Below are positions 1,071-48,257 of a stretch of DNA of 61,719 bases, in pieces (position 1 is the stretch's first letter; the number at the start of each line of letters is the position of its first letter). The position numbers and the translations under genes are program-made. Location: the NCBI GenBank assembly GCA_964347065.1, contig CAYFXN010000005.1, positions 1-61,719 of the forward strand, in the 5' to 3' direction. The DNA is from an uncultured bacterium. GTDB lineage: Bacteria; Desulfobacterota; Deferrimicrobia; J040. The notes beneath the pieces are model-generated. The model saw only the letters and a list, made by a program, of their open reading frames with translations, was not told the origin of the DNA and did not search any database.

Positions 1071-2183
1071 TCATTCAGAGATGGCTAAATGGACCATCCT
1101 CGCGAAATTGAAGACGAGAACGCCATTGAATTCCCTCCCTGAATTCTCCATCATCAGAGCGATAATATCTTTGATTTCCCAATCTTTTTTGTACGGCCTC
1201 TTGCTCCTCAGAGCATCGAAAAAATCGGCAATCTGGACGACCTGACTCACGAGATGCTGCTTTTTTCTTTTATTGTTAAGCTTGGGATATCCTGTGCCGT
1301 CGTATCTCATGTGATGTTCGAAGGCAACGATCGGAGCGAGTTGTGTTAAGCCTTTCATACCAACCAGATAATTTGCTCCAGTAATCGTGTGGCGGGTTAC
1401 TTCCTGAAATTCCTCATCGGTGAGCTTGCCTTTTTTATTGAGGATATCTCTGGATAGGAACAGTTTTCCAACATCGTGAAGCAGGGCCGCAATGCCAATT
1501 TCGTGAAGCATTTCGTCGTTTATCCCGAGGGCCTCTGCCTGAAACATGGAAAGAACAGCCACGTTCGCTGCGTGAGTGTACGTATACTCGCTGTGCGATT
1601 TCACCGGGCTGATGAGCTTGAGAAAATGTGCTTCCCGCTTGAAGGTTATGAAAAAGTTGACCACGATCTCTTCGAGGCCGGCCACGTTTAACTTCTTGAA
1701 GGGAGATATGGAATTGAATATTTCCTTTGCCATCTCCAGCTGGGCTGCCGTTGCATTGCCCAATCCATCCGCTTCGGCTTCAGCGAGGGGCTGCAATTCG
1801 CCGGCCCGTAGTTCGACAACGCCCGTTTTTATGTGGGGATATGATCGAAACGGCTTGTTTTTATCGGTAAAATCCTCAATAAAACCGGCAAATTCCGGGG
1901 CCGTCAATCCTTTTAAAAAATCTATTCGCGATACTCCTTTTCTCTTCATCCGCTTTTTCAGGTTGTTTACGAGGCTTCCTTCATCGCGGGTGGGGCTTTT
2001 ATTGACGATAAGGTCATCTTCGACCATCATTATTTCAAAACTTTCGTTTTCCGCGAAGAATTCTGTGATGGTGGACAGGGATTTACCGATGAGGGCTTCT
2101 ACCGATGGATGCTCGGGCGAATAGAGAGAGCAGGTTGAGACGGCAGCCATGAACGTGGAGAGAAAGTTCTTATGGGGTTCCAT
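1071..2183 (-). CDS. HD-GYP phosphodiesterase with N-terminal YxxxHP domain (pair 1)
   Basis: YTYTHAANVA, LLHDVGK, EHHMRYDGTGYP, ADFFDALRSKRPYK. Start reassigned to ATG at 2183 (MEPHKNF) with a GGGGG RBS upstream. Confidence 0.88.
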   Translation of the reverse strand: MEPHKNFLSTFMAAVSTCSLYSPEHPSVEALIGKSLSTITEFFAENESFEIMMVEDDLIVNKSPTRDEGSLVNNLKKRMKRKGVSRIDFLKGLTAPEFAGFIEDFTDKNKPFRSYPHIKTGVVELRAGELQPLAEAEADGLGNATAAQLEMAKEIFNSISPFKKLNVAGLEEIVVNFFITFKREAHFLKLISPVKSHSEYTYTHAANVAVLSMFQAEALGINDEMLHEIGIAALLHDVGKLFLSRDILNKKGKLTDEEFQEVTRHTITGANYLVGMKGLTQLAPIVAFEHHMRYDGTGYPKLNNKRKKQHLVSQVVQIADFFDALRSKRPYKKDWEIKDIIALMMENSGREFNGVLVFNFARMVHLAISE

Positions 2184-4356
2184 GGTAGTTCCCCCGTGAG
2201 GTGGATTCAATTTTTTCACCACTTTTTAACAGTTTCAACGACTCCCCTCTTATAACATCGTTTTTTGATTTTGCCCCGGCTTCTGCGAGGCCCCGCACGT
2301 CATTTAAGGGGTAATGTTTCAATGTTTTGAAAACCTCTTCCCTGAGCCTCTCTATTGCACTTTTAAATAGAATGCTCTTTGAAAACATGAGATTTTTTAA
2401 AGCCCCAATTGCAGAGGGATCTCCGATCTTTCCCAGGACAGCAACCAGCGGGATCTTATCGAGATAATCTGCTCCGGTGACACCCTTTTTCTCCACCATC
2501 CTGAGTAGTTCGGGAACTGCTTCTTTGATCTTGAATGTTCCCGATAGGGTTATCGCCTGATTTACGAGTTTTTTTGAATTTGATCTGATATTTTTCATCA
2601 CCATATCTATGCCGTCCCTCTCACCTTTTTGAAGGAGGCATTTAATCGCTTCGGTACTTACTTGGATGTTTTCATTCTGACAGTAGGGTTTAACGTGAGG
2701 AATGACTTCCTTATCACCGCACTCTGTCAGGATAAATATCATGTTTCTTTTCACGAACCACCTATCATCGTCGAGTCGTTTTATCGCTTCTGAAACTGAT
2801 CTTTTACCGAAACCGGTGATCAACGTAATGATGAATCTCCTCGTTGCTTTGGACTCCTCATCGAATAAGACATCGAAGAGGTACGGCAGTATTCTCTCAC
2901 CGTAATAATTGCAGAGAACAGTGGTTTCATCGCGATTTAGTCTCCCCATGATCCTTAAAGATTCAACGAATCTAACAATGAATTCCTCTGAGTGAAATTG
3001 TTCGATAATGGTGGCAAAGAGATCCGGAAAAATTTTCTTTGCCTCGCTCTTTTCTATCCCTTTTATTATATTGAGGGCTTCGAAGTACTGACCAGTTTCG
3101 ACGTAATGTTGACACTGTTCGAGCAAAATTGGGATCTGTTTCTCCATGTCTTCATGAGAGACCATATTTGTACTTATAAGTTCGAGAAGAAATCGGTAGA
3201 AGGCCTTTTCGAGAGCCTCATATTCACATGCTTCTTTCAATTCTTTCATTTCTTCCTGGGCCAACTTTCCCGGTTCAAATTCAAGGATTTTCTGGATCTC
3301 ACGGTTATATTTCTCTGTAACGAATGCCTTGAAGTCACCCTTGCTGAGAAGGTTGATGATATCGGGTGACAGTAATATGTCATCGAGAATCGGTGAATCT
3401 TCGATAAACAAGTTTAACGGGTCATCTCTGCCATCAATTTTCGAGAACTTATCTATAAGGTTTTTAAGGGCTTCGGGTACCATGATCTTGTGTTCATTGA
3501 CGACGCTTAAAAGTTCTATAACTCTGTCGACAGATACTTCTCCGAGAGCTTTTTCAATCGGGACCATATCGGTTGAGATATTTTTCATAGTGGAAGAGAG
3601 AAACTGTTGTTTGAGTTCCGGACGGAGAGAATGTATGAAATCGAGCAATTTTTTCAGCTCAGTATCAGAAAAAAAACGTTCTGAGGAACTTCGTATGTAT
3701 GTGGTTATTACCCTGTCGTATGATTCCTCTTTTAAGTAACTGACCCCTTTCTCATTCAGCAGGGATGCGAGCATTTCCGGTGGGATTTTCCGTATTATCT
3801 CCGATCCTTCATTTTTCTGAAGGGTGCCTTCGAGGAGGCCGAAGAGGTAAAGTTCCCACAATTTTTTTTTCTCCTCGCCAGCCTCGGTCTTTCCCTCCTC
3901 GAAGATAAATGAGTCGTAATCTACGAAATCCAGGGTAATATTTTTAAGATTGAAACTTTTGCGGGATTCTTTTATCTCCTCGATAGATGTTTCGGAGGAC
4001 GTTTCAGAGAGGAACCGGTGAAATGCGTAAATATCATCTCTTGATAGGTTACGCGGGAAGGTAACGGAAGCGATACCGAGGCCGCTCAGGTACGTGGCGA
4101 AGTCCCGGTAAACGGGGTTTTTTTTGTCCAGGTAATGATTGTCAATCACCAGAGTGTCTTTCGCGATACCGAGGGTTATCTTCGGGCGTATATCGAAGAG
4201 CTTTTGCAACAGATCGTATGCCCGGTCAAGGGACCGTTGCACGGAGGGATGGTCTTCCGGATATATCGCGACATTTCTCCTCGAGATGTTGAGTTCGATT
4301 ATCGAATCGCTGAGCAACCGTGCATCGAGGGGTAATTTTTCCCTGCTATCCGCCAT
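2170..4356 (-). CDS. HEAT/ARM-repeat protein with N-terminal YPxxHP domain (pair 1)
   Basis: C-terminal half has PBS-lyase-type HEAT repeats (LDDDRWFVKRNMIFIL, STEAIKCL, LGKIGDPSAIGAL). N-terminus AIYPEDHPSV. ATG at 4356. Stop overlaps the HD-GYP start by 14 nt. Confidence 0.85.
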   Translation of the reverse strand: MADSREKLPLDARLLSDSIIELNISRRNVAIYPEDHPSVQRSLDRAYDLLQKLFDIRPKITLGIAKDTLVIDNHYLDKKNPVYRDFATYLSGLGIASVTFPRNLSRDDIYAFHRFLSETSSETSIEEIKESRKSFNLKNITLDFVDYDSFIFEEGKTEAGEEKKKLWELYLFGLLEGTLQKNEGSEIIRKIPPEMLASLLNEKGVSYLKEESYDRVITTYIRSSSERFFSDTELKKLLDFIHSLRPELKQQFLSSTMKNISTDMVPIEKALGEVSVDRVIELLSVVNEHKIMVPEALKNLIDKFSKIDGRDDPLNLFIEDSPILDDILLSPDIINLLSKGDFKAFVTEKYNREIQKILEFEPGKLAQEEMKELKEACEYEALEKAFYRFLLELISTNMVSHEDMEKQIPILLEQCQHYVETGQYFEALNIIKGIEKSEAKKIFPDLFATIIEQFHSEEFIVRFVESLRIMGRLNRDETTVLCNYYGERILPYLFDVLFDEESKATRRFIITLITGFGKRSVSEAIKRLDDDRWFVKRNMIFILTECGDKEVIPHVKPYCQNENIQVSTEAIKCLLQKGERDGIDMVMKNIRSNSKKLVNQAITLSGTFKIKEAVPELLRMVEKKGVTGADYLDKIPLVAVLGKIGDPSAIGALKNLMFSKSILFKSAIERLREEVFKTLKHYPLNDVRGLAEAGAKSKNDVIRGESLKLLKSGEKIESTSRGNYHGTP

Positions 4357-4712
4357 AAGCAATTAAAGGCAACCGATAATTTTCGTTCAATGCATCCTTT
4401 CATTCGCTCGACTAAGGTGAGCTCACGGCATCTCCTTTCAAGAGAGCCCGGCCATGATGAGCGTTCCTCTTTCCTTTCTTTATCGGATTCGGGGGATGAT
4501 TGTTGAGCCCCTCGGCACCAGGGAGCGCAACGGGGTATAGCCGGAGGACCACCTCCAGGATACCGCTCTGTTTTTTCCAGCGATTCTGACAAAGTGGAAG
4601 GGGAACTTTCGAGAGGACAAACCGTGTCAGACATCGGTTTTGTTATGGTATTATATGAAGAAATTCCGTGCATATGATCGGAAGAGAAGAACGTTGGGTT
4701 CGGAGCTATCCG

Positions 4713-6279: not shown

Positions 6280-7638
6280 ATGAAGGTATTCACCGGAATA
6301 AGATTTAAACTTTCGCTCGTCACGCTCGTGCTCATTTTGTTTGTCACCGGAGCATCTTCTTTTATTGTCACCAATATAATGGATAGTTTCCTACTCAAAG
6401 AGCTCGTCAGGAGGGGTTTTTCCATCACCGGGAGCGCCTCCACAGCGGCAGGGTACAGCATCCTTTCGAACGACAGGCTTGCGCTGGATAATCTTGCTTC
6501 GAAGATTAGGCAGTATCAGAAAGACATCGTGTATGTGGCGATGGTTGATGACGAGGGCGTCATCAAGGCGCACAGTGATCTGGAAAAAATGGGAGAGCTT
6601 TTTATAGAGAGGGAAAGCGAGGTCATACGCAGAGAAGAAGACGGGTCGACGGTGAAAAAGGTCTTGAGAATGGGTACCATGTGCTTCGAATTCCGAACGC
6701 CCATCATTTTTGCAGATAAAGACCTGGGAGCGATCTATCTCGGAATAGCAGAACAGACTCTCATTGCATCTCAGGAGGAAGCAAGAAAAAAGATCATTCT
6801 CGTATCGGGAATAATTCTCACACTCGGAGTGGCCGGGGTATTTTTCCTTTCCGGTTTCATAACTACCCCGGTAAAGCGCCTTATGGAAGGCGTGTTGAAA
6901 ATGAAATTGTGGGAGTACAGGAGTGAAATCAAAGTGGTTTCCCGGGATGAGCTTGGAGAGCTGACGCGTAATTTCAACGAGATGGCGAACACGATAATGA
7001 ACCAGAAAGAAAAGCTCGAGCTCTCCGCCAGGGAACTGGAGGATGCGTATGTTGCAACAGTGAGGATTCTCGCAGCGGCGATTGATGCGAGGGATGAGTA
7101 TACCTTTGGTCATTCCGAAAGAGTTGCGAAGATATCTGTTCTCATCGGCAGTAAGAGCGGCCTCTCCAATGCCGAAGTGCGGGATCTTGAGATGGTATGC
7201 CTCTTTCACGATGTGGGAAAGATAAAAACCCCTGACAAGATTCTCCATAAGATGGCGCCCTTAAATGATGAAGAGTACAGATTGATGATGAAACATCCCG
7301 AGGACGGGGCAGACATCCTCCGGCTGGCAAATTCGCTGCAGAAACACGTCAAAGCTGTCCTCCACCATCATGAATGGCATAACGGGAAGGGATACCCTCA
7401 CGGGTTGAAAGACGGGCAGATTCCCTATTTTTCTTCTATTATTGCCATCGCAGACGCCTACGATGCCATGACATCATCGCGACCATACCGGAAAGGGATG
7501 TCAAGGCAGGAGGCGATGCAGGAGATTGTCAAGTATAAAGGCGTCCAATTCAATCCGGAAATAACAGACGTGTTCGTCGAAATACTGAAAGATCCGAAAT
7601 ACGCCAAAAAACTGGAAAGAAAAGGGGTCTATGGATGA
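6280..7638 (+). CDS. Membrane-bound periplasmic-sensor / HAMP / HD-GYP c-di-GMP phosphodiesterase
   Basis: Two TM segments, HAMP (SRDELGELTRNFNEM), AAIDARDEYTFGHSERVA, LFHDVGK, HHEWHNGKGYP, DAMTSSRPYR. GGGGAGG RBS. Confidence 0.9.
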   Translation: MKVFTGIRFKLSLVTLVLILFVTGASSFIVTNIMDSFLLKELVRRGFSITGSASTAAGYSILSNDRLALDNLASKIRQYQKDIVYVAMVDDEGVIKAHSDLEKMGELFIERESEVIRREEDGSTVKKVLRMGTMCFEFRTPIIFADKDLGAIYLGIAEQTLIASQEEARKKIILVSGIILTLGVAGVFFLSGFITTPVKRLMEGVLKMKLWEYRSEIKVVSRDELGELTRNFNEMANTIMNQKEKLELSARELEDAYVATVRILAAAIDARDEYTFGHSERVAKISVLIGSKSGLSNAEVRDLEMVCLFHDVGKIKTPDKILHKMAPLNDEEYRLMMKHPEDGADILRLANSLQKHVKAVLHHHEWHNGKGYPHGLKDGQIPYFSSIIAIADAYDAMTSSRPYRKGMSRQEAMQEIVKYKGVQFNPEITDVFVEILKDPKYAKKLERKGVYG

Positions 7639-23069: not shown

Positions 23070-23631
23070 AAGGATACTGAACATCCTCATTCAAGATGAG
23101 GTCGCTCCCGTGAAAGATGAGGCGGTTAAATCCCTCGGCAAGTTCTCTGCGAGAAGGAGATTTCCTGAGTTTATGGGGGTACTTACTTCCGGAAAACCTG
23201 AAGACCGGATGAGGGTTGTTTACGCTGCAGAGGAGATGGGAGGAGATGAGGGTCTCAAGCTTCTCATGCAAGCCGTTGAAGACAGCGCCGATGATGTGAG
23301 AGGCGCAGCGATAAGGATTCTCGAGAATTACCCCCGGGCAGAGGTGTTGAAGACTCTCGTGGATCGGCTTCCCCAAGAAAAGGGCTTCGTTCTGGGAAAC
23401 CTGATAAGCGTTCTGGGCCGGTCCGGGAGAAAGGAGCTCGCCCCCATTCTGACACGGTTCATAAGTCACCCTGACACGGAGATACAGGCAAGAACGATCG
23501 AAGCTCTCGGCCATATAGGAACTGCAGAGGACCTGAAAGAGATAATCGGAAAAGCTGTTTCAGAGAGTCCGTCAGTTCGCAAGGCAGTGGCATTTGCACT
23601 CGGAGCTATCTCCTTAAGCCACGGATCTTGA
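23056..23631 (+). CDS. HEAT-repeat (PBS lyase-like) protein
   Basis: About five HEAT repeats (DDVRGAAIRIL, IQARTIEALGHIG, VRKAVAFALG). Start reassigned to TTG at 23056 behind AGGAGG. Confidence 0.8.
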   Translation: MEEIERILNILIQDEVAPVKDEAVKSLGKFSARRRFPEFMGVLTSGKPEDRMRVVYAAEEMGGDEGLKLLMQAVEDSADDVRGAAIRILENYPRAEVLKTLVDRLPQEKGFVLGNLISVLGRSGRKELAPILTRFISHPDTEIQARTIEALGHIGTAEDLKEIIGKAVSESPSVRKAVAFALGAISLSHGS

Positions 23632-24990
23632 AGGGTTTGCGTTCTCAAGGAGGGGGTTGACGGTGGTGACGATGCTCCTGTTGAACTTCCCCGTTTTCGG
23701 GTCTTTTTCTATAAGGTCTATGTGAACGGGAAAGTCCAGATTCCTGCCTTCTGCGTCGGTGAGCACGATTACCTTCGGTCGAGCCGAATCCTCAGTGTTT
23801 TGGGCTGATACGACGGCCACCTCGTCTGTATCGAGCTTCACCATCGTACCGATCGGGTAAATACCGAGAATTTTTATCAGGACCTTGATCATCGCCGGGT
23901 CCAGAGACTTGCCCGCCATTTTTGTCATCACTTCCAGGGATTCTTTCGGGGTTCTCGGTTTCTGATATGTTCTGAGCGTTGAGAGGGCGTCGTAACAGTC
24001 TGCAATGCTCACGATCTGGCTGTACGGTTCCATTTTGTATCCGGGCTCGATTTTGGGATATCCGGAGAGATCGAAACCCATGTGGTGTTCCCGTACGATC
24101 TTGCCGGAAACGGGGTTTATGAACTCCATTTCGATCAATATCCTGTGTCCTTCGTCGGGATGTTTCTTGATCTCTTCAAATTCCTCAAGTGTCAGGGTCG
24201 ATGGTTTTCTGATGAGGTCGAGAGCGACCTGGGTCTTCCCTACGTCGTGGAGGAGTCCCGCGACCCCTATGTCGATCTTTTCGCTTTCAGATAGGGAGAG
24301 GGATTCAGCGATAGTGAGTGAGATAACCCCGACGTTAACGGAATGGGTGTAGGTATATTCATCGTAGTTCTTTATCATCGTGAGGGCAAGCATGGCATCC
24401 TGATTTTTCTTGAGCATGCCCGACATGTCCTGGACCACTTTTCTCGATTCACTTCCCGAGGGAATTTTACCGAGGCGGATGTCGTTCATTGCCGCCGTAA
24501 CCGCCGAAATTGCGTTCTCGTAAATTTCCTTCGCTGCGGAGAGATCATCCGGTTCCTTGTCTTTCTCGACGGTGACGACCACGATCTTTTTAATATCCTC
24601 GATCTGGAAAAGGTTTCTCACCTTCTGCTCGCTTAATATGCTCCCGCGATTTGCGTGAAGTATCGATATGAAGCTCTCCAGTTCGCTTTTTTTCAATCCC
24701 CGGTGGAAGACAAGTGCCTCGATGCCGCATTCTCCGAGAGATTTGATGAATAGTTCTAAAGAAGAGGTGAGTTGAAACAGGGGAGTTCCTTCGAAAACGA
24801 GCGTTTCGTCCACGATGGCCAGCGCGAGTTCATTGAGTGATTCGAGCAGGGAAGTTATGAGATCGTAAGCTTGAGCTATAGTTTTTTGCACGAGAGGATG
24901 GTTTTCGGGGTAAAGGCCAAGGTTTTTGAGGGCGCCCCCCAGAGCTTTCGTTATTTCCTTTATCTGTGCCTCAAGCTCCATCCTTTCCAT
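23614..24990 (-). CDS. HD-GYP phosphodiesterase with N-terminal YPxxHP domain (pair 2), RxxQ variant
   Basis: GLYPENHPLV, YTYTHSVNVG, LLHDVGK, EHHMGFDLSGYP, DALSTLRTYQ, C-terminal YPIGTMVKL extension. Confidence 0.88.
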   Translation of the reverse strand: MERMELEAQIKEITKALGGALKNLGLYPENHPLVQKTIAQAYDLITSLLESLNELALAIVDETLVFEGTPLFQLTSSLELFIKSLGECGIEALVFHRGLKKSELESFISILHANRGSILSEQKVRNLFQIEDIKKIVVVTVEKDKEPDDLSAAKEIYENAISAVTAAMNDIRLGKIPSGSESRKVVQDMSGMLKKNQDAMLALTMIKNYDEYTYTHSVNVGVISLTIAESLSLSESEKIDIGVAGLLHDVGKTQVALDLIRKPSTLTLEEFEEIKKHPDEGHRILIEMEFINPVSGKIVREHHMGFDLSGYPKIEPGYKMEPYSQIVSIADCYDALSTLRTYQKPRTPKESLEVMTKMAGKSLDPAMIKVLIKILGIYPIGTMVKLDTDEVAVVSAQNTEDSARPKVIVLTDAEGRNLDFPVHIDLIEKDPKTGKFNRSIVTTVNPLLENANPSRSVA

Positions 24991-26539
24991 GGTCCATCCT
25001 CTCGAGAATTTTGGCTGCCTCCTTCCTACATATGCTATCGGAACCTTTGGTCAAATTTTCAAGTGCTTCATGTGCTTTTTCGGATTTTATTTTTCCGATG
25101 CCCTGGACGGCAAACATTTTGAGCTCCTTCAATCTCCTTGGCTTGAACAGCGGGTTGTACAGGGCGATGCTCTGTAATACAACTACCGCATTCTCGGTTC
25201 CGATGTTTTTCAGCGAATCGATAATCTCCTTCGAGATCCTGTAGTCAGGATAGACGAACTTTCTCCTTCCGAACCTCTCTTTGAGGATTTGTATGGCCGA
25301 ATCGTCTTTTTTCGTTCCCAAGGCTGCCACAGAAATAGTCGCTATGTTTTCGTCGGCATCGAAACAGCATTGACCAAGAGCCGTAATCGATATGGGGCTC
25401 TGGATTTTTGAAAGCGCTTTGATCGCCTCTTTCTTAACCCGCGGGTCGGGGTTCTTGAGCGTGTTTGCTATGTGCTGGGCAACCTCCTCTTTCCCAATTC
25501 CTCCCAGAATGGTGATCATGTTTCTGATGACGTACCATCTCGTGTCATCGAGGAACTTTACGATATACGGGATGGCAGGGTCCCCTATCTTGGTAACCAG
25601 ATCAACCATCGCTTTCCGGACGATGAGGTTCTTTTCATCAGTGAGCGCTGCAAGAATTTTTACCACGCCCGCTTCCCCTATAATGAGCAGGACGGTCTGG
25701 GCTTCCACCCTCTCCTGAAGCGATTTGCTCCCGAATTTTTTCACGTAAAGGTCGATAATATCCTCATCGACGAGCTCTTTGATACCCGTGATGGCGAGAT
25801 CTTTGATTTCTTCGTTCCCACCGGGAGGATACTCCGTGTGGTTGGAAAAGATCTTGATGGCCTTTTCGGCTTGGAGCAGTCGCTCCTTACGTGTCAGCTC
25901 ATCGATTTTTTTCAAAATCTGCTGAAGAGTATCTCTGTATTCTCCCGATTCAGCCGTTTGCGCCAGTTTGGACAGGAGCGTGTCGATATCGTCTTCCTCA
26001 ATTTTCATCTCCTTATCAATGGGCACTTTTTCAAAAATGATATGTTCATTTTCCTGTGGTGCCGGCTCCTTCTCCTTCTTGAGCTCCTCCATCAATTTTT
26101 CATAATCAACCCTGTTTATCCAGATTTTTGAAATTCTCATTCCTATGAGGATCCTCTCAAGCCCGCCCTTATTCATAATCTCGTCGGGATCGAGAGAAAT
26201 AGCTTGCAAAAAATCCCTCATCTCATCAAGTGTTACACCGGGTAGGAGGATGAGTTTGTTGGTTCTGCGAACGAAGAGTGCATTTCGAAAATCCGAGATG
26301 GCATCATGCTTTTCGGGAAGTTTTGTTTCACCGACGGTAAGGCTCGGTTTGCTCACGGAAATTTCGATTCCCCCGTCAGGGGGGGGGACATCATCTATCG
26401 ACTGGCAGATTTTCTGTAATATTTTTATCAGCGAGGGATGGCTTTCCGGATAGAAAGAAACTGCTTTCATCCCCTTCGCCATTTCCGTTACTGCTTTTGT
26501 AATCTTGTCGATGTAGGATTCCCTGTTATCGTCTTTCAA
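24971..26539 (-). CDS. HEAT-repeat protein with N-terminal YPxxHP domain (pair 2)
   Basis: SFYPESHPSL at the N-terminus, HEAT repeats (LDDTRWYVIRNMITILG, DPRVKKEAIKAL). TTG start. Overlaps the HD-GYP start by 20 nt. Confidence 0.85.
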   Translation of the reverse strand: MKDDNRESYIDKITKAVTEMAKGMKAVSFYPESHPSLIKILQKICQSIDDVPPPDGGIEISVSKPSLTVGETKLPEKHDAISDFRNALFVRRTNKLILLPGVTLDEMRDFLQAISLDPDEIMNKGGLERILIGMRISKIWINRVDYEKLMEELKKEKEPAPQENEHIIFEKVPIDKEMKIEEDDIDTLLSKLAQTAESGEYRDTLQQILKKIDELTRKERLLQAEKAIKIFSNHTEYPPGGNEEIKDLAITGIKELVDEDIIDLYVKKFGSKSLQERVEAQTVLLIIGEAGVVKILAALTDEKNLIVRKAMVDLVTKIGDPAIPYIVKFLDDTRWYVIRNMITILGGIGKEEVAQHIANTLKNPDPRVKKEAIKALSKIQSPISITALGQCCFDADENIATISVAALGTKKDDSAIQILKERFGRRKFVYPDYRISKEIIDSLKNIGTENAVVVLQSIALYNPLFKPRRLKELKMFAVQGIGKIKSEKAHEALENLTKGSDSICRKEAAKILERMDHGKDGA

Positions 26540-28418: not shown

Positions 28419-28473
28419 AGCATTCATCAAACAGCGTCTTGTTACCGATATTAAATATATGCTGGAGGTAGTC

Positions 28474-29505
28474 ATGGAGTCCAATAAGAAAAAAGCTCTC
28501 GATATAGCCCTTTCGTCCATTGAGAAACAATATGGAAAGGGTTCAATCATGCGGCTAGGGGAGCGCGTCAGCGTTCCGGACGTTCCGGTGATCCCCACCG
28601 GCTCCATTTCTCTTGATTTAGCACTCGGCATCGGGGGTATTCCCCGGGGAAGGATCACGGAGATTTTCGGTCCCGAAATGTCGGGAAAGACGACGCTCGC
28701 TCTCCACATTTTGGCGGAATCACAGAAAATGTCGGGCGTCACCGCTTTCGTCGATGCCGAACATGCCCTCGATGTGCGCTATGCGTCGAAACTGGGTGTC
28801 AATACAGATGATCTTATCATTTCCCAGCCCGACTCAGGGGAACAGGCCCTCGATATTGTCGAGACGCTGGTTCGGAGCGGGGCGCTTGATCTGATCGTCA
28901 TCGATTCAGTGGCGGCGCTCGTGCCGAGAGCCGAACTCGAAGGGGAGATGGGTGACGCGCACATGGGCCTCCAGGCAAGACTCATGTCCCAGGCGCTGCG
29001 GAAACTTACGGCAACAATAAGTAAGTCCAACACCTCCGTGGTGTTTATCAACCAGACGAGGATGAAAATAGGGGTAATGTTCGGAAATCCCGAGACCACG
29101 ACGGGAGGCATGGCCCTCAAGTTTTATTCGTCACTGAGGATAGACATCCGGAGAATAGCACAGATCAAGGTGGGCAACGAGGTGATCGGAAACAGGACTC
29201 GGGCGAAGATCGTAAAAAACAAGCTCGCTCCTCCTTTCAGGGATGTGGAGTTCGACATACTCTACGGTGAAGGTATTTCCAAGGAGGGAGACCTGGTTGA
29301 TCTGGCCACCAATTTGGGAATAGTGGAGAAGAGCGGATCCTGGTATTCTTTCAAGGACGAGAAAGTGGGGCAGGGCAGGGAAAACGTGCGCCTGTTCCTT
29401 CAGCAAAATAAGGATGTGAGCGATAGCATAGAGAGGGAAGTGAGGGAGAAAACGGGGTTGAAGGCGTTGAAAGGGGAGGAGAAAAACCAAGAGCAGGGAG
29501 ATTGA
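28474..29505 (+). CDS. recA: Recombinase RecA
   Basis: [59 protein letters not shown] at 28474 behind GGAGG. Confidence 0.99.
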
Positions 29506-30647
29506 AGATGTCCCTTAATTTGAATGAAATATTACAGGTTGCCGTTAAAAACGGCGCATCGGATGTTCACCTTAAAGTGGGGCTACCCCCAGTACTCAGA
29601 GTTAACGGGAGGCTCGTTCCCCTGAAAGTGGACTATCGGTTGAAACGCGAAGATCTCATGGCCATCACGAATATGGTTCTGAGCGATGCCCAGAAGGAAA
29701 AGTTTAGGGACGCGCGAGAACTCGACGTGGCCTATAGCGTCTCCGGGCTCGGTCGTTTCAGGACCAATATATTCATGCAGCGGGGTACGCTCGGCATCGC
29801 CCTGCGGGTTGTCCCCGGGGGCGTCCTCTCCTTCGAGGAGTTAAACCTTCCGGAAGTTCTCGAAAAAGTTGCCATGGAGGCAAGAGGCCTTATCCTTTGT
29901 ACCGGAACCACGGGGAGCGGCAAATCGACGACACTTGCTTCGATCATAGAATATATCAACAATCACAGGACATGCCATATCATCACCATCGAAGACCCGA
30001 TCGAGTTTCTCCTCAAGGATAAAAAGAGCATTATCACACAACGGGAGGTGGAAGTTGACACCCCCTCGTTCGCAGCGGCCCTGAAGAGCGCCCTCAGACA
30101 GGATCCCGACGTGATACTCCTGGGAGAGATGAGGGACTACGAGACCATTGAAACTGCTCTTATTGCTGCCGAAACGGGACATCTCGTTCTCAGCACCCTT
30201 CACACGCTGGATGCGGCAGAGACCATCAACCGCATAATTACCGTTTTTCCTCCCTATCAGCAGAAACAGATACGCCTGCAGCTCTCAACGATCCTCAAAT
30301 CAGTCATATCGCAGCGCCTGGTGATGAGAGCTGATGGTGAAGGTAGGGTGCCGGCAGTGGAAATACTTCTGAACACTGCAAGGGTCAGGGAATATATCGA
30401 GGACAAAGAGAAGACGAAAAAGATACGGGATGCGATAGCCGAGGGCTTCGTATCCTACGGGATGCAGACCTTCGACCAGTCCCTCATGAGTCTCTACAAA
30501 AGTCAACTGATTAGCCTCGATGAGGCGATGAGGCAGGCAAGCAACCCTGACGACTTTGCCCTACGCGTCAAGGGTGTGACGAGCAGTTCCGACCTCACAT
30601 GGGATGAGTTTGAAAGGGCAGGAGGAGATGAGGAAGACGGTCTGTGA
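29502..30647 (+). CDS. pilT: Type IV pilus retraction ATPase PilT/PilU family
   Basis: [60 protein letters not shown]. Start is TTG at 29502 or ATG at 29508. Confidence 0.93.
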
Positions 30648-31138
30648 AAAAGGGTGACGGTGATTGTTTCAGGGAATCTCTCAGGATAGTGTCCAGGCGG
30701 CAATATTCTGTGTTGGAGGTGCGTGAGAAACTTCTGAAGAAGGGTTTTGGCGAGGGACCTGTCGGGGAATCGGTAAGCAAACTGGAGGATTACGGATACC
30801 TCGACGATAGGGAACTGGCGAAATCGATCGTCTATAGCAAGTTCCATTCAGCAGGGTACGGGAGAAGAAAAATCCGTCAATATCTCAGGAGAAGGAAAAT
30901 CCCTGAGAATATAATAGATAGTGAACTGGAAGAGTCCGTTTCCCGGAGGGAGGCAATCGAGAGAGGGGTAGCGCTCCTGGGAAGAAAACAGCAGCGGGCT
31001 GAAAAAAAACTCATGTCGGAGAAGGGAAGGGTTTTGCGGTTCCTCGCGGGGAGGGGGTTTGAACTCGGCGAGTGTATCGATATAATTTCTGCATACGAGA
31101 AAATGAAGAGGAAAGAAAATGACGGGGAAGGAAGTTAG
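30644..31138 (+). CDS. recX: Regulatory protein RecX
   Basis: RRQYSVLEVREKL, YGYLDDRELA, YGRRKIRQYLRRRKI, RFLAGRGF. Confidence 0.85.
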   Translation: MKKGDGDCFRESLRIVSRRQYSVLEVREKLLKKGFGEGPVGESVSKLEDYGYLDDRELAKSIVYSKFHSAGYGRRKIRQYLRRRKIPENIIDSELEESVSRREAIERGVALLGRKQQRAEKKLMSEKGRVLRFLAGRGFELGECIDIISAYEKMKRKENDGEGS

Positions 31139-39554: not shown

Positions 39555-39836
39555 TTTGCCGACCTCTTGACCAGAGAGTTCTTAAACAGTGGTTTCTCAA
39601 ATTATAAATGAAGTTTTCGGCCCCGAAAGGATAAATCTGTTGAAGATGACCGACGCGCGGGCGTCCCTTGCAGGGGGAACCGGGGAAAAAAGCGATTGAG
39701 ATGAGGAAATTACCGGTTACACCAGGCGCGAGACCTTGGTGGGCTGAAGTGTTTTTGCGGTAAAATAAACTTGGTTGATTTTCCCTTTCTTATCATCTAT
39801 GTTATATGATTTTAGTAACCAAGGGAGCTAGGTTAT

Positions 39837-42612: not shown

Positions 42613-44172
42613 ATGGCTATGAGAAAGAGACTCGGCGAGATTCTGATTGAGGCGGGACTTATAACCAACCAGGATCTCAACTACGCCCTCAAATCGCAGC
42701 GGCAGCTCGGTGGTACCGTTGGTGAAGCATTGGTTAGATTGGGATACGTGTCTGAAGAGCAGATCCTCCGTGCGCTATCCAAGCAACTTTCCCTCTCCCA
42801 TGTGAATTTGAGTAAAATCTCCATTCCCGAGGATGTGCTCAAAGTGGTTTCTTATTCAACGGTAAAGGAGAGAAAGATTCTTCCCCTCGGGTATGAAGGC
42901 TCGAAACTGATTGTCGGGATGGTGGATCCGACCGACCTCGAAGTGCTCTCGCAGGTGGAATTTAAAACGGGAAAAGCGACGCAACCGGTAATCATATCAT
43001 CCCACCAGTTTGGTGATGCCCTTCTCTTTTTCGAGGATCGTGGTTACGGAACGGTTCTTTTCGAACTGAGAGAGGATGTTGTCAAAAGAACGGAGGTAAT
43101 CGGGAATGATGTAGACAGCTTTCTCTCTACCCTCGTTGAGTTAAAAGGGCAGGACCTTCACCTTTCGGCAGGCGCGATCCCGAGTCTCAGGGTAGACAAC
43201 GAGTTGAGGAGGCTCAACTTTCCCGCCCTGACGCCTATTCAGATGGATAACATGATGTCCAAAATGCTTTCTTCGGAAAGGAAGAAGAGATTCGATGAGA
43301 CATTCGAGCTAGATTTTGCCTATTCTCTCGATGGGGTGGGCAGGTTCAGGTGTAATCTCTACAAGCAGCGGGGGTCTTTGGCATTTATAGCCCGCCACGT
43401 AGTGGAAGAGGTTCCAGAAGCCGATGAATTGGGCCTCCCTGCCTTCATTCGTGACTATGCGCTGAAAATAAGCGGGCTCATCCTCATTGTGGGAGCGAAC
43501 GGCCACGGAAAGTCAACAACCCTCGCTACCATGGTTGACATTATCAACAGGGAACGGAAGGCAAACATCATAACCATAGAAGATCCCATAGAGTTCACGC
43601 ACAAGCACAAGAACTCGAACGTGAACCAGCGGGAGGTTGGGACCGACACAAAATCTTTCGCTGACGGGTTGAGACATGTCTTCAGGCAGAATCCGGATGT
43701 CATCGTTATCGGTGAACTGAGGGATTTCGAAAGTATTTCGATAGCGCTGAGTGCGGCAGAGACGGGCCACCTCGTAATGGGAACGCTCCACTCCAACAAT
43801 GCCGTTTCCGCGGTGGACAGAATTATTGATATCTTCCCCCCGGGCCAACAGCAGCAGGTTCGGGCGCAGTTTGCAGACTGCATCGAGCTGGTTTTTTCAC
43901 AGCGGCTCATAAAAAAAGCCGATGGCACGGGGAGGATCTTGGCCTGGGAGAAGATGGCAACCAGCCCGCGGGTTCGCAATGCGATTCGGGAAGGAAAGAC
44001 ACATAATATTCGGAACATGATGCAGACGAACCTGGAGGAGCTGGTGAGCATCGACTGGACAATCGCCGAACTCGTTGCCGCGGGAAGGATCCACTATGAG
44101 GAGGCGATCAAGTTTGCCGATAACCTGAATTATTTTAACGATCTCTTGAAATTAAGGGGTGTTTACCGGTGA
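42613..44172 (+). CDS. MshEN/T2SSE_N-fused PilT-family ATPase
   Basis: N-terminal [24 protein letters not shown] (MshEN motif) with a second degenerate copy. C-terminal PilT domain ([57 protein letters not shown]). Confidence 0.9.
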
Positions 44173-44180
44173 GAGACAGG

Positions 44181-44285
44181 TTGGTCCAGATAAGAGGCCA
44201 AGCAGAGGCGAGAGAGAAATGGCACTTCTGGTGGTTCTACATCCTGAAGTGGCGCCCCTGTGGTTTCGATTCCCTTTCGTTATGA
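44181..44285 (+). CDS. Aromatic-rich attenuator leader peptide ([34 protein letters not shown])
   Basis: Not in the ORF track. TTG at 44181 with GGTGA SD 8 nt upstream, or GTG at 44169 overlapping the pilT stop. TGG-CAC-TTC-TGG-TGG-TTC-TAC at 44220-44240. TGA at 44283-44285. Confidence 0.72.
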
Positions 44286-44291
44286 TTCCGG

Positions 44292-44324
44292 AGCCACCGG
44301 GGGGAACACCCGGTGGTTTTCTTT
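44292..44324 (+). terminator. Intrinsic terminator (attenuator) upstream of aroA'
   Basis: AGCCACCGGG-GGGAACA-CCCGGTGGTT followed by TTCTTT, 30 nt before the aroA' start codon. Confidence 0.85.
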
Positions 44325-44353
44325 CAATTAAGCTTGAAAGGTGGAGGAAGACA

Positions 44354-45145
44354 TTGATAGGAAAAAAGGTAAGGCTCGAAAGAATAATCAATAGAAATAC
44401 GGGGAAAACGGTTATCGTTCCCATGGATCATGGGCTCACCGCAGGCCCGATAGAAGGGCTGATCGACGTTTCGAAAGCCGCGAATCTTGTTGCCGAGGGG
44501 GGTGCCAACGCAGCTGTGGTTCACCGGGGCGGAGCGATGTTTGGCCACCGCGGTTACGGTAAGGATTTGGGTCTGATAATCCATCTGTCGGCATCGACGA
44601 ACCTTGCTCCCGATGCGAATAAAAAGATCCTCGTTGCGACTGTGGAGGACGCCATCCGGTTGGGTGCCGACGCGGTATCCATACACATCAACCTCGGTGC
44701 CGATAACGAGGCTGAAATGTTATCCGATTTCGGGGTCATTTCTTCTTCGTGCCATTATTGGGGGATGCCGCTTTTGGCGATGATGTACACTCGGGGACCG
44801 AAAATATCGAACCAGTTCGATCAAAAATATGTAAAGCACGCCGCGAGGGTCGCTGCAGAGATGGGAGCGGATATCGTGAAGGTCCCCTATTCCGGTTCCG
44901 TTGAATCCTTCAGCGAAGTCGTTACTGGCTGCGCCATACCGGTAGTGATAGCGGGAGGAGAGAAGATGAGCAGCGATTTTGAAGTCCTGACGATGGTCGG
45001 GGAGGCAATATCAGCGGGGGCAACGGGCGTTTCCATCGGAAGAAACGTATTTCAGCACACATCTCCCACGAAAATGGTGAGGGCGATTTCCGATATTGTG
45101 CATAACGGGGCCGGCGTAGAAGAAGCCCTGTGTGTTCTTGAGTAG
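44354..45145 (+). CDS. aroA': 2-amino-3,7-dideoxy-D-threo-hept-6-ulosonate synthase (archaeal-type AroA', class I aldolase)
   Basis: [59 protein letters not shown]. Start reassigned to TTG at 44354 (GGAGG RBS). Paired with DHQ synthase II. Confidence 0.88.
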
Positions 45146-45155
45146 GGAGTGTGAG

Positions 45156-46145
45156 ATGGAATTCTGGGTGAGGAGCATCCCCTACAAGAAAGAAATTATC
45201 ACCTTCGCTCTGGAACGCGGAATATCGACCTTCTGGGTGCAGGACAAATCGGTTGGTGCCGTGAGGAGGCTGGGCAAAGTGAATGTCGTAGCAGAGTCTG
45301 GGGACGTGAAACCGGGTGTGGATTTTAAGGTCTGTGAGATAACGGAACGGGGAGAACTGGAGAGGCTGTACACCCTTCCCGATGAGCTGTTGATATACGT
45401 GGAGGCAAGGAAAGAAGAGATCATACCACTTGAAAACCTCGTGGCTCAGCGCAAGAAGGTCCTTGTTCCTGTCAGGGGGGAAGATGACCTTCGTGTCTTC
45501 TCGGGGGTTCTGGAAAAAGGCGTCTGGGGGGTCGTTTTCGATGTGGATTCGCCGGGGGAACTATCCTTCCTCCTGTCCCGTTTCGATGAATGGCAAATAT
45601 CCCTCCAGTTGAAAAAAGCCGTGATTACGGAGGTTGACGTTCTCGGTCTCGGGGATAGAGTGTGCGTCGACACCTGCACCCTCATGACAGGACCGGTTGG
45701 TATGCTCGTGGGCAACTCCTCGAGAGGCTTATTCCTCGTCTCAGCCGAAAACGTCTCCTCTGAGTATGTTGATGAAAGACCTTTCAGAGTGAATGCCGGG
45801 GCAGTGCACATGTATACTCTCCTCCCATCGGGGAGGACCTGTTACCTTTCCGAAATCGAGGCGGGAAGCCAGGTCCTCACTGTGAGAAGCGATGGCGTTT
45901 CAGAAGTTGCGTGGGTGGGAAGGGCAAAGATCGAGAAAAGGCCCCTTCTCTTGATAAAAGGGGATGCGGGGGGAAAGGAGGTCTCTGCTGTTGTGCAGAA
46001 CGCAGAAACAATAAGGCTGATTTCCCCCAAGGGAGAACAGATATCGGTATCGGAGATAAAGAGGGGCAAGGAAGTCCTGTGTTTTCTGGACGAGGGGGGA
46101 AGACACTTCGGGATGAAAATAGAGGAAACGATCAAAGAGAAGTGA
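45156..46145 (+). CDS. aroB': 3-dehydroquinate synthase II (archaeal-type AroB')
   Basis: IIPLENLVA, GDRVCVDTCTLM..PVGMLVGN, RPFRVNAGAVH, GRAKIEKRPL, GGRHFGMKIEETIKEK. ATG at 45156. Confidence 0.93.
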   Translation: MEFWVRSIPYKKEIITFALERGISTFWVQDKSVGAVRRLGKVNVVAESGDVKPGVDFKVCEITERGELERLYTLPDELLIYVEARKEEIIPLENLVAQRKKVLVPVRGEDDLRVFSGVLEKGVWGVVFDVDSPGELSFLLSRFDEWQISLQLKKAVITEVDVLGLGDRVCVDTCTLMTGPVGMLVGNSSRGLFLVSAENVSSEYVDERPFRVNAGAVHMYTLLPSGRTCYLSEIEAGSQVLTVRSDGVSEVAWVGRAKIEKRPLLLIKGDAGGKEVSAVVQNAETIRLISPKGEQISVSEIKRGKEVLCFLDEGGRHFGMKIEETIKEK

Positions 46146-46284
46146 CCGCCCTTTCTGCAACGAATCCCCTTTGCATTATCGAACGGCTCTTTCGGACCCG
46201 CGCAGGTTCTCGGCGTTTGACAAATAGTTTTTCCATATCACATGTATAACTGATACAATAAATTTAGCAATTGTGGAGGAATAT

Positions 46285-46473
46285 ATGTTCGGATTAGGAT
46301 TGCCGGAACTGCTGATCATTTTGGTCATCGTGGTGTTGATATTCGGAGCGGGAAAGCTTCCGCAAATCGGCGCGGGATTGGGCCAGGCAATAGGTAATTT
46401 CAAGAAAGCAATCAAAGATTCAAAGTCGATAGATGTCACTCCGAAAGAGGAAGAGAAGAAAAAAGAAGAGTAA
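46285..46473 (+). CDS. tatA: Twin-arginine translocase subunit TatA/E
   Basis: [50 protein letters not shown]. Confidence 0.95.
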
Positions 46474-46550: not shown

Positions 46551-48257
46551 TCAGTCGATGCTCTCCACCTTGTACGCCTCGATTTTCTCCGGCAGGTCGA
46601 AAAATACGACCATGAATGGAACGGAAGAACCTGGCTGAATGTCGATGTTTGAGAGGTTTTTGCCGAGTCTATTCTGCTGCGACTCTTCAATCGACTTCTT
46701 CGAGGAATTTCTCAGCATCTTGTTATCAAGGGGGTTTCCTGCGTATACTTTTTTCTCTTCCAGAACCTTGTTGCTATCTCCGAGCAACTGGCCTTTCAAA
46801 ACGATTCCGCTGGCCACCGTCTTCGAGAGGTTGACCACGTCGCCCTTTATGATAAATACTTTTCCCTCATTGCGGTTTGTCTCGTAATAGCCGATGAGGT
46901 TCGCGATGTCGAACTGGCTCGAACCCTGGCCGCCTTTCAGACCCAAGAGAGAACGCACGTAGGGAGTATATTTGATTATTATTTCATTTCCTGGCTCCGT
47001 GAAGGCAAGATAAGCACCGGCTCCCGCCACAGCGAGCAGGAATATGAGAAGCATCATGAGGAACCCGCCGAGCTTTGACCTTGTTCTCTTCTTGGCGATG
47101 GTCTTCGGTACAAACTCATAGGGAGATACTGGCTCTCTCATAACCGGTTCGGAAACTTCAAAACGCATATCGGAAACTCTTTGCTCCTGGCCGGCTGTTC
47201 GTTTTCCAATCGCATCCATATCCAGGGTCGGCGTGTCGGCGGGAGTCTCTTTCACAGATTCGATGATTCCTTCCGTAGGCACATCGACGGGCGGCGTCCA
47301 TCCAGCCTCCTCCGTCTCATCGGGCGTGGGACGCATTGATTCGGCAAAGTCCGAGGGGCTTTGAAAATCAAGCTTCTCCTCCTGCAGTTTCAGGTCAAAG
47401 GGATCGTGTTTCTCATCCGGTGGCTCATCTTTGCTTAAAAATTCGAGGGTATCACCGGCTGATAGAATTTCCGGCTTTTCTTCAGCGCTTTCCTCCGGTC
47501 CGGAGGGGGGCGCAACTTCCTCTGTTGCATCTTGCTCCGCTATCGGTTCTTGCTTTGCATCCGCTAAATAATCAGGCTGTTCGAAGGAGTCCTCCGGTAT
47601 TTTGGAGTCCTCTCTCAGGGAGCCGAGGAACCTTTCGAAAGCAAGATCGATGTCGTCTTTTGGCACTTCGTCCTCTTTTTCGGTTACCTCCGGCGTATCC
47701 GGTTCTTCTTCGTCAAAAGCAACCTCCTCCCTTCCCTCATCATCTTTTTCCGGAAGGTGGGAAACCGCTTCTGCTTTGAAGGGCTCCTCTGGCACCTCTT
47801 CCCTCTGCCCGGGCTCCTCCTCTTCCTGTACCTTCATGCCGGCAATCTCTTCCTCTGCGCTTTCTCCGGCGAACAGTTCTCTCTCTTCCTCCTCCTCCTC
47901 CTCTTCTTCCTGTGCCTTCATGCCGGCAATCTCTTCCTCTGCGCTTTCTCCGGCAAACAGCTCTCTCTCTTCTTCCTCCCGTTCATCTTCTCGGGGAACA
48001 GGCGGTTCGACCGGCGGTTCCACCTCCTGTTCTGCTTCGTCGACTTCTCGAGTTTCCTCTTTTTCTTCCATGGCCCTTTTCAGCTCATCAGCGCGGATCC
48101 CATCAATGAACTCACGTTTCAAGTGTTCGTATTCCGGTTTCATGACGATTATGTAATCGGAGCACTTTCTGCATTTCACGCGGGCTCCTTTTCCCGCAAT
48201 TTTGTCTTCGCTCAGCCTGTATTTGGCCTTACAATTGTCACACAGAATTATCATCAA
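46551..48257 (-). CDS. MJ0042-type zinc-ribbon / acidic linker / TM / DUF3426 protein (ZitP/GltJ-like architecture)
   Basis: CDNC..KY.L...KI...GARVKCRKC, ~300 aa Glu/Pro-rich linker, one TM, C-terminal domain (FIIKGDVVN...PFMVVF). Confidence 0.85.
   Translation of the reverse strand: MMIILCDNCKAKYRLSEDKIAGKGARVKCRKCSDYIIVMKPEYEHLKREFIDGIRADELKRAMEEKEETREVDEAEQEVEPPVEPPVPREDEREEEERELFAGESAEEEIAGMKAQEEEEEEEEERELFAGESAEEEIAGMKVQEEEEPGQREEVPEEPFKAEAVSHLPEKDDEGREEVAFDEEEPDTPEVTEKEDEVPKDDIDLAFERFLGSLREDSKIPEDSFEQPDYLADAKQEPIAEQDATEEVAPPSGPEESAEEKPEILSAGDTLEFLSKDEPPDEKHDPFDLKLQEEKLDFQSPSDFAESMRPTPDETEEAGWTPPVDVPTEGIIESVKETPADTPTLDMDAIGKRTAGQEQRVSDMRFEVSEPVMREPVSPYEFVPKTIAKKRTRSKLGGFLMMLLIFLLAVAGAGAYLAFTEPGNEIIIKYTPYVRSLLGLKGGQGSSQFDIANLIGYYETNRNEGKVFIIKGDVVNLSKTVASGIVLKGQLLGDSNKVLEEKKVYAGNPLDNKMLRNSSKKSIEESQQNRLGKNLSNIDIQPGSSVPFMVVFFDLPEKIEAYKVESID
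47815..47980 (-). repeat. Two tandem 84-nt (28-aa) repeat units within the acidic linker
   Basis: CCTTCATGCCGGCAATCTCTTCCTCTGCGCTTTCTCCGGC at 47831 and 47915, encoding ERELFAGESAEEEIAGMK(A/V)QEEEE. Confidence 0.9.

Follow-up and report, generated by a model that had tools for sequence, protein, structure and literature searches.

A putative aromatic amino acid-responsive attenuator between pilT and aroA' in an uncultured bacterium of the Desulfobacterota

What occupies the 181 nucleotides (nt) between a pilT gene and the aroA' and aroB' genes of an uncultured Desulfobacterota bacterium, and could this gap control the genes that follow it? The locus lies in a 61,719-nt stretch of DNA (GenBank assembly GCA_964347065.1, contig CAYFXN010000005.1, positions 1 to 61,719; hereafter the window), where pilT ends at 44172 and aroA' starts with a TTG codon at 44354. 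The two downstream genes encode 2-amino-3,7-dideoxy-D-threo-hept-6-ulosonate (ADH) synthase and 3-dehydroquinate (DHQ) synthase II. An earlier interpretation made from the nucleotide letters without database searches (the sequence-only reading) had proposed that the gap hides a ribosome-mediated attenuator that reads Trp, Phe and Tyr supply and gates aroA'/aroB'. That proposal is supported by related genomes, by the predicted helices and their geometry in silico, and by the enrichment of similar leaders upstream of other aroA' genes. On these grounds, namely a conserved frame and codon run, conserved helices, a fitting geometry and the enrichment elsewhere, we consider it probable that a working aromatic-responsive attenuator is present within a pilT-aroA'-aroB' transcription unit.

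The gap contains a 38-codon open reading frame (ORF) with four Trp, three Phe and one Tyr codon (Table 1). The sequence-only reading had picked out this hidden frame together with two candidate starts, GTG 44169 and TTG 44181, which lie in the same frame, and every one of these elements was found where it had been placed. The GTG overlaps the pilT stop codon as GTGA. A Shine-Dalgarno (SD)-like AAGGGG precedes it within pilT and has purine-rich counterparts in relatives; since the codons concerned are also conserved at the protein level, an SD role for it is only a possible one. Codons 18 to 24 of the leader read W-H-F-W-W-F-Y, and an additional Trp codon follows at 44250-44252. When all six frames of the whole window were scanned, just 3 of 98,888 stop-free seven-residue segments had at least six aromatic residues, and WHFWWFY was the only one of the three to contain Trp. 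The gap therefore combines a short ORF, having a start codon and a plausible route of access for ribosomes, with a cluster of codons for pathway end products. The genes downstream encode ADH synthase and DHQ synthase II, so that the codon content of the leader matches the end products of the pathway they would serve.

To see how this leader has fared in related bacteria, AroA' homologues 77-86% identical to that of the window were traced to their contigs, and about ten syntenic lineages were compared (loci are given L numbers). All have one gene order: a DUF2400 gene, an oppositely oriented methyltransferase gene, pilT, aroA', aroB' and tatA, with pilT and aroA' set ∼170-190 nt apart. In all nine long-gap relatives (L008, L005, L003, L091, L001, L009, L171, L010 and L004) a start codon on the pilT stop (GTGA, ATGA or TTGA) opens a small ORF. 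Translation of the regions upstream of aroA' orthologues, a check that the sequence-only reading had itself suggested, revealed that the aromatic run is conserved in six lineages. These are the window, L008 (MSDRLIQVRWETLARVHWNFWWFYVLKWSPRGCVPL), L005 (...RRDAWWFCLLKW..., with Ala before WW and Cys replacing Tyr), L171 (...DKRGSWWFYLFGW...), L001 (MKKVGAGKSVRRCVSHSFFWWFYTPV) and L009 (MRGRDSVTLSFAQGSGFFWWWYPHL), whose AroA' proteins are 77-100% identical and whose leaders share a W-W-(F/W)-(Y/C) core at codons 19-24. The Phe and Tyr codons change synonymously between relatives (TTC/TTT, TAC/TAT), while the N- and C-terminal residues of the leader and its length (25-38 codons) diverge. An invariant core with synonymous changes and drifting flanks points to selection on codon identity, rather than on peptide folding or on the RNA sequence as such. 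The further suggestion that His charging might also be sensed was rejected, as the His19 position is not conserved: it is Asn in L008, and no His occurs there in the other relatives.

Downstream of the control codons we identified the two alternative helices expected of an attenuator. The strong terminator noted after the leader was confirmed by terminator scan and folding, and its stem proved longer than first described (12 pairs, 7 of them G-C, -21 kcal/mol, with a G+C-rich core at 44294-44301 / 44309-44316). It is the strongest terminator-like site in the 8.5 kb between 40000 and 48500. The proposed antiterminator, GTGGTTTCG pairing with CGGAGCCAC, also held up and extends to 44255-44268 x 44289-44302, a helix of 13 pairs at -22 to -24 kcal/mol, interrupted by a single U x C mismatch; the mismatch is replaced by a G-C pair in L001 and L009. 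Since the 3' strand of the antiterminator shares its sequence with the 5' arm of the terminator, the two helices would be mutually exclusive. The terminator and the 13-bp antiterminator are kept in seven sequences. We counted pairings on the alignment of these seven from the antiterminator 5' strand (region 2) onward, using as controls the same counts with the partner strand slid by 1-3 columns. For the antiterminator 88.8% of cells were paired, compared with 44-63% for its slid controls, and for the terminator 91.7%, the slid controls over both helices ranging from 31 to 63%. Some substitutions hit both sides of a pair. By these counts the helices are conserved, although covariation is modest and falls short of proving them.

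We also folded the seven sequences with the footprint of a ribosome masked, up to 13 nt past the stalled A-site. With the ribosome at the first or the last control codon, the antiterminator formed in all seven at -17 to -29 kcal/mol and held 10-15 nt of the terminator 5' arm; the terminators of the same sequences have energies of -16 to -30 kcal/mol. With the ribosome at the stop codon, the antiterminator 5' strand was covered in all seven and residual structure amounted to -0.5 to -8.7 kcal/mol. The switch foreseen in the sequence-only reading was thus reproduced in 7/7 sequences, and the modelled geometry fits attenuation, in that stalling would free the antiterminator, whereas a ribosome that has reached the stop codon would mask it. 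A hairpin CACTTC/GAAGTG spanning the control codons had been described as well. It is present in the window at 44223-44228 / 44246-44251, as the top of a longer imperfect hairpin in the minimum-energy folds, but it is not conserved in sequence, and only a loose hairpin of the 1:2 type recurs: region 2 pairs with sequence 5' of the codon run in the minimum-energy folds of 7/7 sequences. This hairpin might possibly serve as a 1:2 anti-antiterminator or pause structure.

To extend the comparison beyond the window lineage, we surveyed up to 300 nt upstream of aroA' at 164 loci from genome and metagenome collections, scoring the best small ORF of each locus by its aromatic residues in seven. On the sense strand 27 loci reached at least five of seven and 21 at least six. 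The reverse complements of the same loci gave 1 and 0, and 1640 shuffles gave 9 and 0, respectively. Among the leader-bearing loci that we tabulated, 23/28 also have one or two elements consisting of a hairpin plus U-run, the last of which typically ends 29-36 nt before aroA'. Positives outside the window clade carry mostly Desulfobacterales, Desulfobacteraceae or Deltaproteobacteria labels, with one labelled Deferribacteres; none of the surveyed loci labelled as archaea or Planctomycetota had an aromatic-run leader. A Spirochaetota locus (L037) with five aromatic residues in seven lacks a terminator, and its run may be due to chance. The leaders outside the window lineage, for example L041 (MVHNRSGRYYFYYWYFFNTGLPGVR), L068 (MKRQHSSFFCYYYYYAVMAIEGAVRAC), L043 (MMRYSLYKIYFWSFYFRGGLSMAS) and two others (MNKFTGSFSGFYYYSSTGLPVVR; MDARQVAYSFYYYFYYPWP), lie behind a TTGACA/TATAAT-like promoter of their own; Tyr and Phe are plentiful in them, and Trp occurs 0-1 times. 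Given this enrichment across other lineages, the case for aromatic leaders gating aroA' does not rest on the window alone.

Two structural types were noted among these other leaders. In the Desulfobacterales type (L041, at about 2170-2500; also L034, L039, L042, L050, L133, L139, L142, L144, L145, L158, L159, L166, L168 and L169, in each case 5' of aroA') the leaders share a C-terminal GLPGVR. The RNA encoding it, GGUCUGCCUGG, has alternative partners: CAGGYAG, located 5' of the run, and the 5' arm of hairpin 1, the first of two hairpin plus U-run elements arranged in tandem. In addition, the 5' arm of hairpin 2 (CCGUGG) and the 3' arm of hairpin 1 (CCCACGG) are complementary. From its sequence this leader looks like a six-segment attenuator. 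A third type, upstream of aroA' at L043 and L069 (MMRYSLYKIYFWSFYFRGGLSMAS; ...WIWSFYYFMGARLWPSEP), has 3-4 copies of GGCCAUG/CAUGGCC that can form alternative long hairpins before aroA'.

Several observations weigh against an attenuator at this locus. Covariation is thin: there are seven sequences, and 31-64 of 500 shuffles reach the observed values on most measures, a modest outcome attributable to the invariance of the GCCACCGG core and the small number of sequences. The 1:2 hairpin is no better than shuffles save in L009 (-37.2 against a mean of -30.0, standard deviation 3.6), and the fold of the whole leader is only marginally better than shuffles (z = -1.86). The stop codon of the window leader lies 4 nt 5' of the extended terminator stem and 8 nt 5' of its G+C-rich core, so near that a lingering ribosome could hinder the base of the terminator and the timing of release could affect termination. 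Among relatives, L004 and L010 lack terminator and aromatic run alike, all that remains of the run in L003 and L091 is two spaced Trp codons, and L171 has the run without a hairpin plus U-run, so that the element, judged from these sequences, is evolutionarily labile. Leader translation, stalling, termination and the response to amino-acid supply are all inferred from sequence. Lastly, at the aroR leader, a precedent from Corynebacterium glutamicum considered below, the effect came from Phe limitation only, according to PMC11802643.

This precedent bears directly on the question of which amino acids the leader reads. The same attenuator could sense Trp only or mainly, through the invariant tandem TGG TGG, with the Phe and Tyr codons adding little. 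WW is indeed the sole strictly invariant part of the run in the window clade, L003 and L091 have Trp codons only yet retain terminator and antiterminator, and the aroR leader, with its F-Y-F run, responds to a single amino acid in the account just cited. On the other side, Phe and Tyr codons beside WW have been kept through synonymous changes in most of the six lineages, Tyr and Phe prevail in the other aroA' leaders, and the regulated step supplies all three amino acids. We regard sensing of Trp alone or mainly as unlikely, with a small but real chance of being right.

A simpler explanation would treat the hairpin as a plain terminator of pilT and the aromatic ORF as a chance frame, aroA' being transcribed by leaky read-through or from an unrecognised promoter. 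The terminator does follow pilT, the folding energies are only weakly better than those of shuffles, and L004 and L010 are without the ORF features. This explanation is nevertheless improbable, since the frame, its position and the aromatic core are conserved with synonymous changes while the remainder of the peptide diverges, aromatic runs are enriched upstream of aroA' (27/164 loci against 1/164 and 9/1640 in the controls), the antiterminator is conserved with the correct geometry, and the aroA' start comes just 29 nt after the U-tract.

The closeness of the leader stop to the terminator raises another alternative, occlusion as at pyrBI, in which a ribosome following closely behind the polymerase blocks the terminator, and the device reports the coupling of transcription and translation instead of amino-acid supply. 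The leader stop codon is followed by the terminator 5' arm after 4 nt in the window, 5 nt in L005 and 11 nt in L008, and in the window a ribosome positioned on that stop would cover about 44265-44295. In L001, L009, L003 and L091, however, the stop is 27-38 nt upstream and the same helices are kept, and occlusion leaves the conserved aromatic run and the antiterminator unexplained; we judge it quite improbable.

It is very improbable, too, that what the gap encodes works as a small protein, or as an RNA to which a metabolite or protein binds (in the manner of a riboswitch, T-box or TRAP-like element), rather than as a leader sensed by the ribosome. CUGGUGGUU resembles the 3' arm of the terminator, and part of the conservation could therefore act at the RNA level. 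Against this, the peptide is unconserved in length (25-38 residues) and flanks, and synonymous substitution suggests that codon identity is what has been selected. Rfam searches of 43800-44700 at E-values up to 10 gave nothing above noise, the best score being 18.5 bits to an unrelated small RNA (cut-off 72), and at gathering level none of the Rfam amino-acid leaders (Trp RF00513, His RF00514, Leu RF00512, Thr RF00506 and others) matched in this region. No gathering-level Rfam match was found in eight related loci from outside the window lineage either, the T-box model (RF00230) matched neither that region nor these loci, and no (G/U)AG triplet repeats are visible in 44169-44290.

Finally, the gap might be coding because aroA' carries a 45-residue N-terminal extension from ATG 44219, as in the 308-aa call of the 99% identical database protein P0001; in the window (44159-45145) no stop codon interrupts the aroA' frame for 66 codons 5' of the gene. 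Such an extension is hardly credible and was rejected, since in 8/9 relatives the frame closes 5-34 codons upstream, every relative has its M(I/V/K)GK start preceded by a GGAGG in the same position, the family profiles begin their alignment at residue 1-2 of the 263-aa product, and the terminator would fall inside the gene. P0001, whose ATG lies inside the control codons, is very likely an over-extended gene call.

Returning to the attenuator, we propose that it would operate as follows. Transcripts from pilT would carry the 38-codon leader, whose translation is probably coupled to that of pilT through the overlap of its GTG with the pilT stop. A shortage of charged tRNA-Trp, tRNA-Phe or tRNA-Tyr would make a ribosome stall within WHFWWFY (44220-44240), leaving region 2 (44255-44268) free to pair with 44289-44302 as the latter emerges from the polymerase. 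This antiterminator would consume the 5' arm of the terminator, and the polymerase would read into aroA'/aroB'. With ample aromatic amino acids the ribosome would cross region 2 and reach the stop codon at 44283-44285, blocking the antiterminator; the terminator hairpin and U-tract would then form, and transcription would end 29 nt before aroA'.

The sequence-only reading had further suspected that the switch sits mid-operon, and three observations bear this out: the leader start lies on the pilT stop in nine long-gap lineages, the promoter scan found no promoter-like site on the plus strand between 42525 and 45634, and the end of the U-tract is only 29 nt from the aroA' start codon. Being placed so, the terminator must be traversed by transcription of aroA'. 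In the next clade out (AroA' 71-75% identical, including Candidatus Deferrimicrobiaceae; L015, L018, L092, L105 and L174-L176) pilT is 30-50 nt from aroA', ends in TAG and has no leader after it. The linkage of pilT to aroA' without a leader in this outer clade suggests that the linkage is older and that the attenuator sits within it. L171-L173 and L010 still have in the gap a leader ORF that opens on the pilT stop (L171 reads ...SWWFYLFGW...), and only stems without a U-run follow; these loci may have translational or Rho-dependent control, or a decaying element.

Table 1. Coordinates of the proposed attenuator and of the genes around it in the window
Feature	Position	Strand	Details
pilT, PilT-family ATPase with N-terminal MshEN-type c-di-GMP-binding domain	42613-44172	+	Upstream cistron
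SD-like AAGGGG	44154-44159	+	9 nt 5' of GTG 44169, within pilT codons for L-R-G
Leader ORF, 38 codons	44169-44285	+	GTG start, stop TGA 44283-44285; ORF listing and translation
pilT stop TGA	44170-44172	+	Overlaps leader GTG
Imperfect hairpin enclosing control codons	44205-44267	+	Minimum-energy folds; CACTTC/GAAGTG at top
Control codons TGG CAC TTC TGG TGG TTC TAC (W H F W W F Y)	44220-44240	+	Codons 18-24
Putative antiterminator, 5' strand (region 2), CCCCUGUGGUUUCG	44255-44268	+	Pairs with 44289-44302
Putative antiterminator, 3' strand	44289-44302	+	Terminator 5' arm (region 3)
Predicted intrinsic terminator	44290-44324	+	Stem 44290-44301 / 44309-44320, loop GGGAACA; terminator scan and folding
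U-tract UUUUCUUU	44317-44324	+	Stem then CTTTC
aroA' ribosome-binding site GGAGG	44343-44347	+	6 nt 5' of TTG 44354, read from sequence
aroA', ADH synthase	44354-45145	+	First putatively regulated gene
aroB', DHQ synthase II	45156-46145	+	Second putatively regulated gene

The gene assignments rest on profile searches. The pilT product scores 401.5 bits against TIGR01420 (cut-off 319) and 67.9 bits against the c-di-GMP motif NF053729 (cut-off 38), and the aroA' product 368.9 bits against TIGR01949 (cut-off 299.45) and 398.5 bits against NF005556. The aroB' product reaches 385.1 bits against NF002627, marginally below the cut-off of 392, with an alignment beginning at residue 10; its relatives are 329-aa proteins matching PF01959 (DHQS). 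The longest ORF of aroB' runs from GTG 45132 and overlaps aroA'. From the ATG at 45156 the product is 329 aa long, like those of all relatives, and this start agrees with the beginning of the family profile match. Beyond aroB', tatA (46273-46473) has a promoter-like site of its own (46230-46259, TTTCCA-18-TACAAT with an upstream TG) and is probably outside the attenuated unit. The 45 annotated ORFs of the window include no further aromatic-pathway genes that could share the leader, and the region upstream of hisG (39555-39836, the gene starting at 39837) contains no His-rich small ORF or classical his leader.

Elsewhere in the window a second PilT-like (T2SSE) ATPase gene (29502-30647) is flanked by recA (28459-29505) and recX (30644-31138), stop and start codons overlapping at the junctions. 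There are also two pairs of a HEAT-repeat gene followed by an HD_5 (HD-GYP-like) gene on the minus strand (1071-4362 and 23614-26539) and a third HD_5 gene on the plus strand (6280-7638). The HD_5 genes and the MshEN-PilT gene suggest that the window encodes much c-di-GMP-related signalling. A zinc-ribbon protein encoded on the minus strand at 46551-48257 is very acidic and has an internal tandem duplication, ...RELFAGESAEEEIAGMK.QEEEE... occurring twice; its relatives carry DUF3426.

How far might these observations reach? Tentatively, and with rather less confidence than we have in the window element itself, we suggest that widespread leader attenuators may jointly read the charging of Trp, Phe and Tyr tRNAs and control entry through ADH synthase and DHQ synthase II in Desulfobacterota-like bacteria, the leader here being coupled to a gene for a c-di-GMP-binding PilT-like protein. 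If so, both translation of the upstream pilT and the supply of aromatic amino acids would determine how far the aromatic pathway is expressed. The bacterial aroA'/aroB' route is poorly characterised, and the recurrence, in many lineages, of leaders full of Trp, Phe and Tyr codons before these genes is independent, regulation-based evidence for its role in aromatic amino-acid supply, as well as a simple and testable handle on its control. They would also add an attenuator family that is missing from Rfam. A mid-operon attenuator whose leader start is fused to the preceding stop could escape searches confined to regions downstream of promoters.

The mechanism proposed is a classical one. In the E. 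coli trpL-trpEDCBA and pheL-pheA attenuators, the position of the ribosome on a run of end-product codons selects between antiterminator and terminator. Like trpL and pheL, the window element has a short leader ORF, an end-product codon run, a terminator before the first structural gene and a mutually exclusive antiterminator, the latter separated from the last control codon by 14 nt. Unlike them, its run mixes Trp, Phe and Tyr, its target is the ADH synthase/DHQ synthase II entry route, and its start overlaps the stop of an unrelated upstream gene rather than following a promoter. For the window leader we found no covariance-model similarity to the Rfam Trp leader or to other families.

The closest precedent in concept that we found is the aroR leader (Phe-Tyr-Phe), which attenuates the operon of aroF, encoding 3-deoxy-D-arabino-heptulosonate 7-phosphate (DAHP) synthase, in C. 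glutamicum (Neshat et al. 2014, as described in PMC11802643). There too a mixed-aromatic leader precedes the first committed enzyme of the common aromatic pathway, and since this system is already known, a leader of that kind before the first shikimate enzyme is less exceptional. Compared by description, aroR belongs to a different phylum and a non-homologous first enzyme (DAHP rather than ADH synthase), has no Trp and its own promoter context, and is reported to be active on Phe limitation alone. The claim that no attenuator had been described for aroA'/aroB' still stands for the sources searched, in which aroR-aroF came nearest: Rfam and the literature consulted, mostly outside subscription journals, yielded no such attenuator and no description of how bacterial aroA'/aroB' are regulated. 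Rodionov et al. 2004 (PMC545781) do not describe an aromatic attenuator in the δ-proteobacteria, and an aroA'/aroB' attenuator is not covered by Naville & Gautheret 2010, Sun et al. 2013, Korolev et al. 2016 or Price et al. 2018.

Within our own survey, the Desulfobacterales-type leaders resemble that of the window in their target, in having an aromatic run in a small ORF and in a terminator ending ∼30 nt before aroA'. They differ in having their own sigma-70-like promoter, a run dominated by Tyr and, in many cases, two tandem hairpin plus U-run elements and the GLPGVR-coding segment. There is no evident sequence similarity between the two, and they may be independent inventions. In the aro supraoperon of Bacillus subtilis the Trp-activated RNA-binding protein TRAP acts on (G/U)AG repeats. 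That attenuator likewise places a terminator/antiterminator switch between upstream genes and aromatic-pathway genes of one unit, whereas the sensor proposed here would be the translating ribosome. Measured against these systems, the mechanism is known, and the gain from our sequence comparisons is one of scope and annotation rather than of principle: what sets the window element apart is the target pathway, the mix of codons for three amino acids, and the mid-operon overlap of stop and start.

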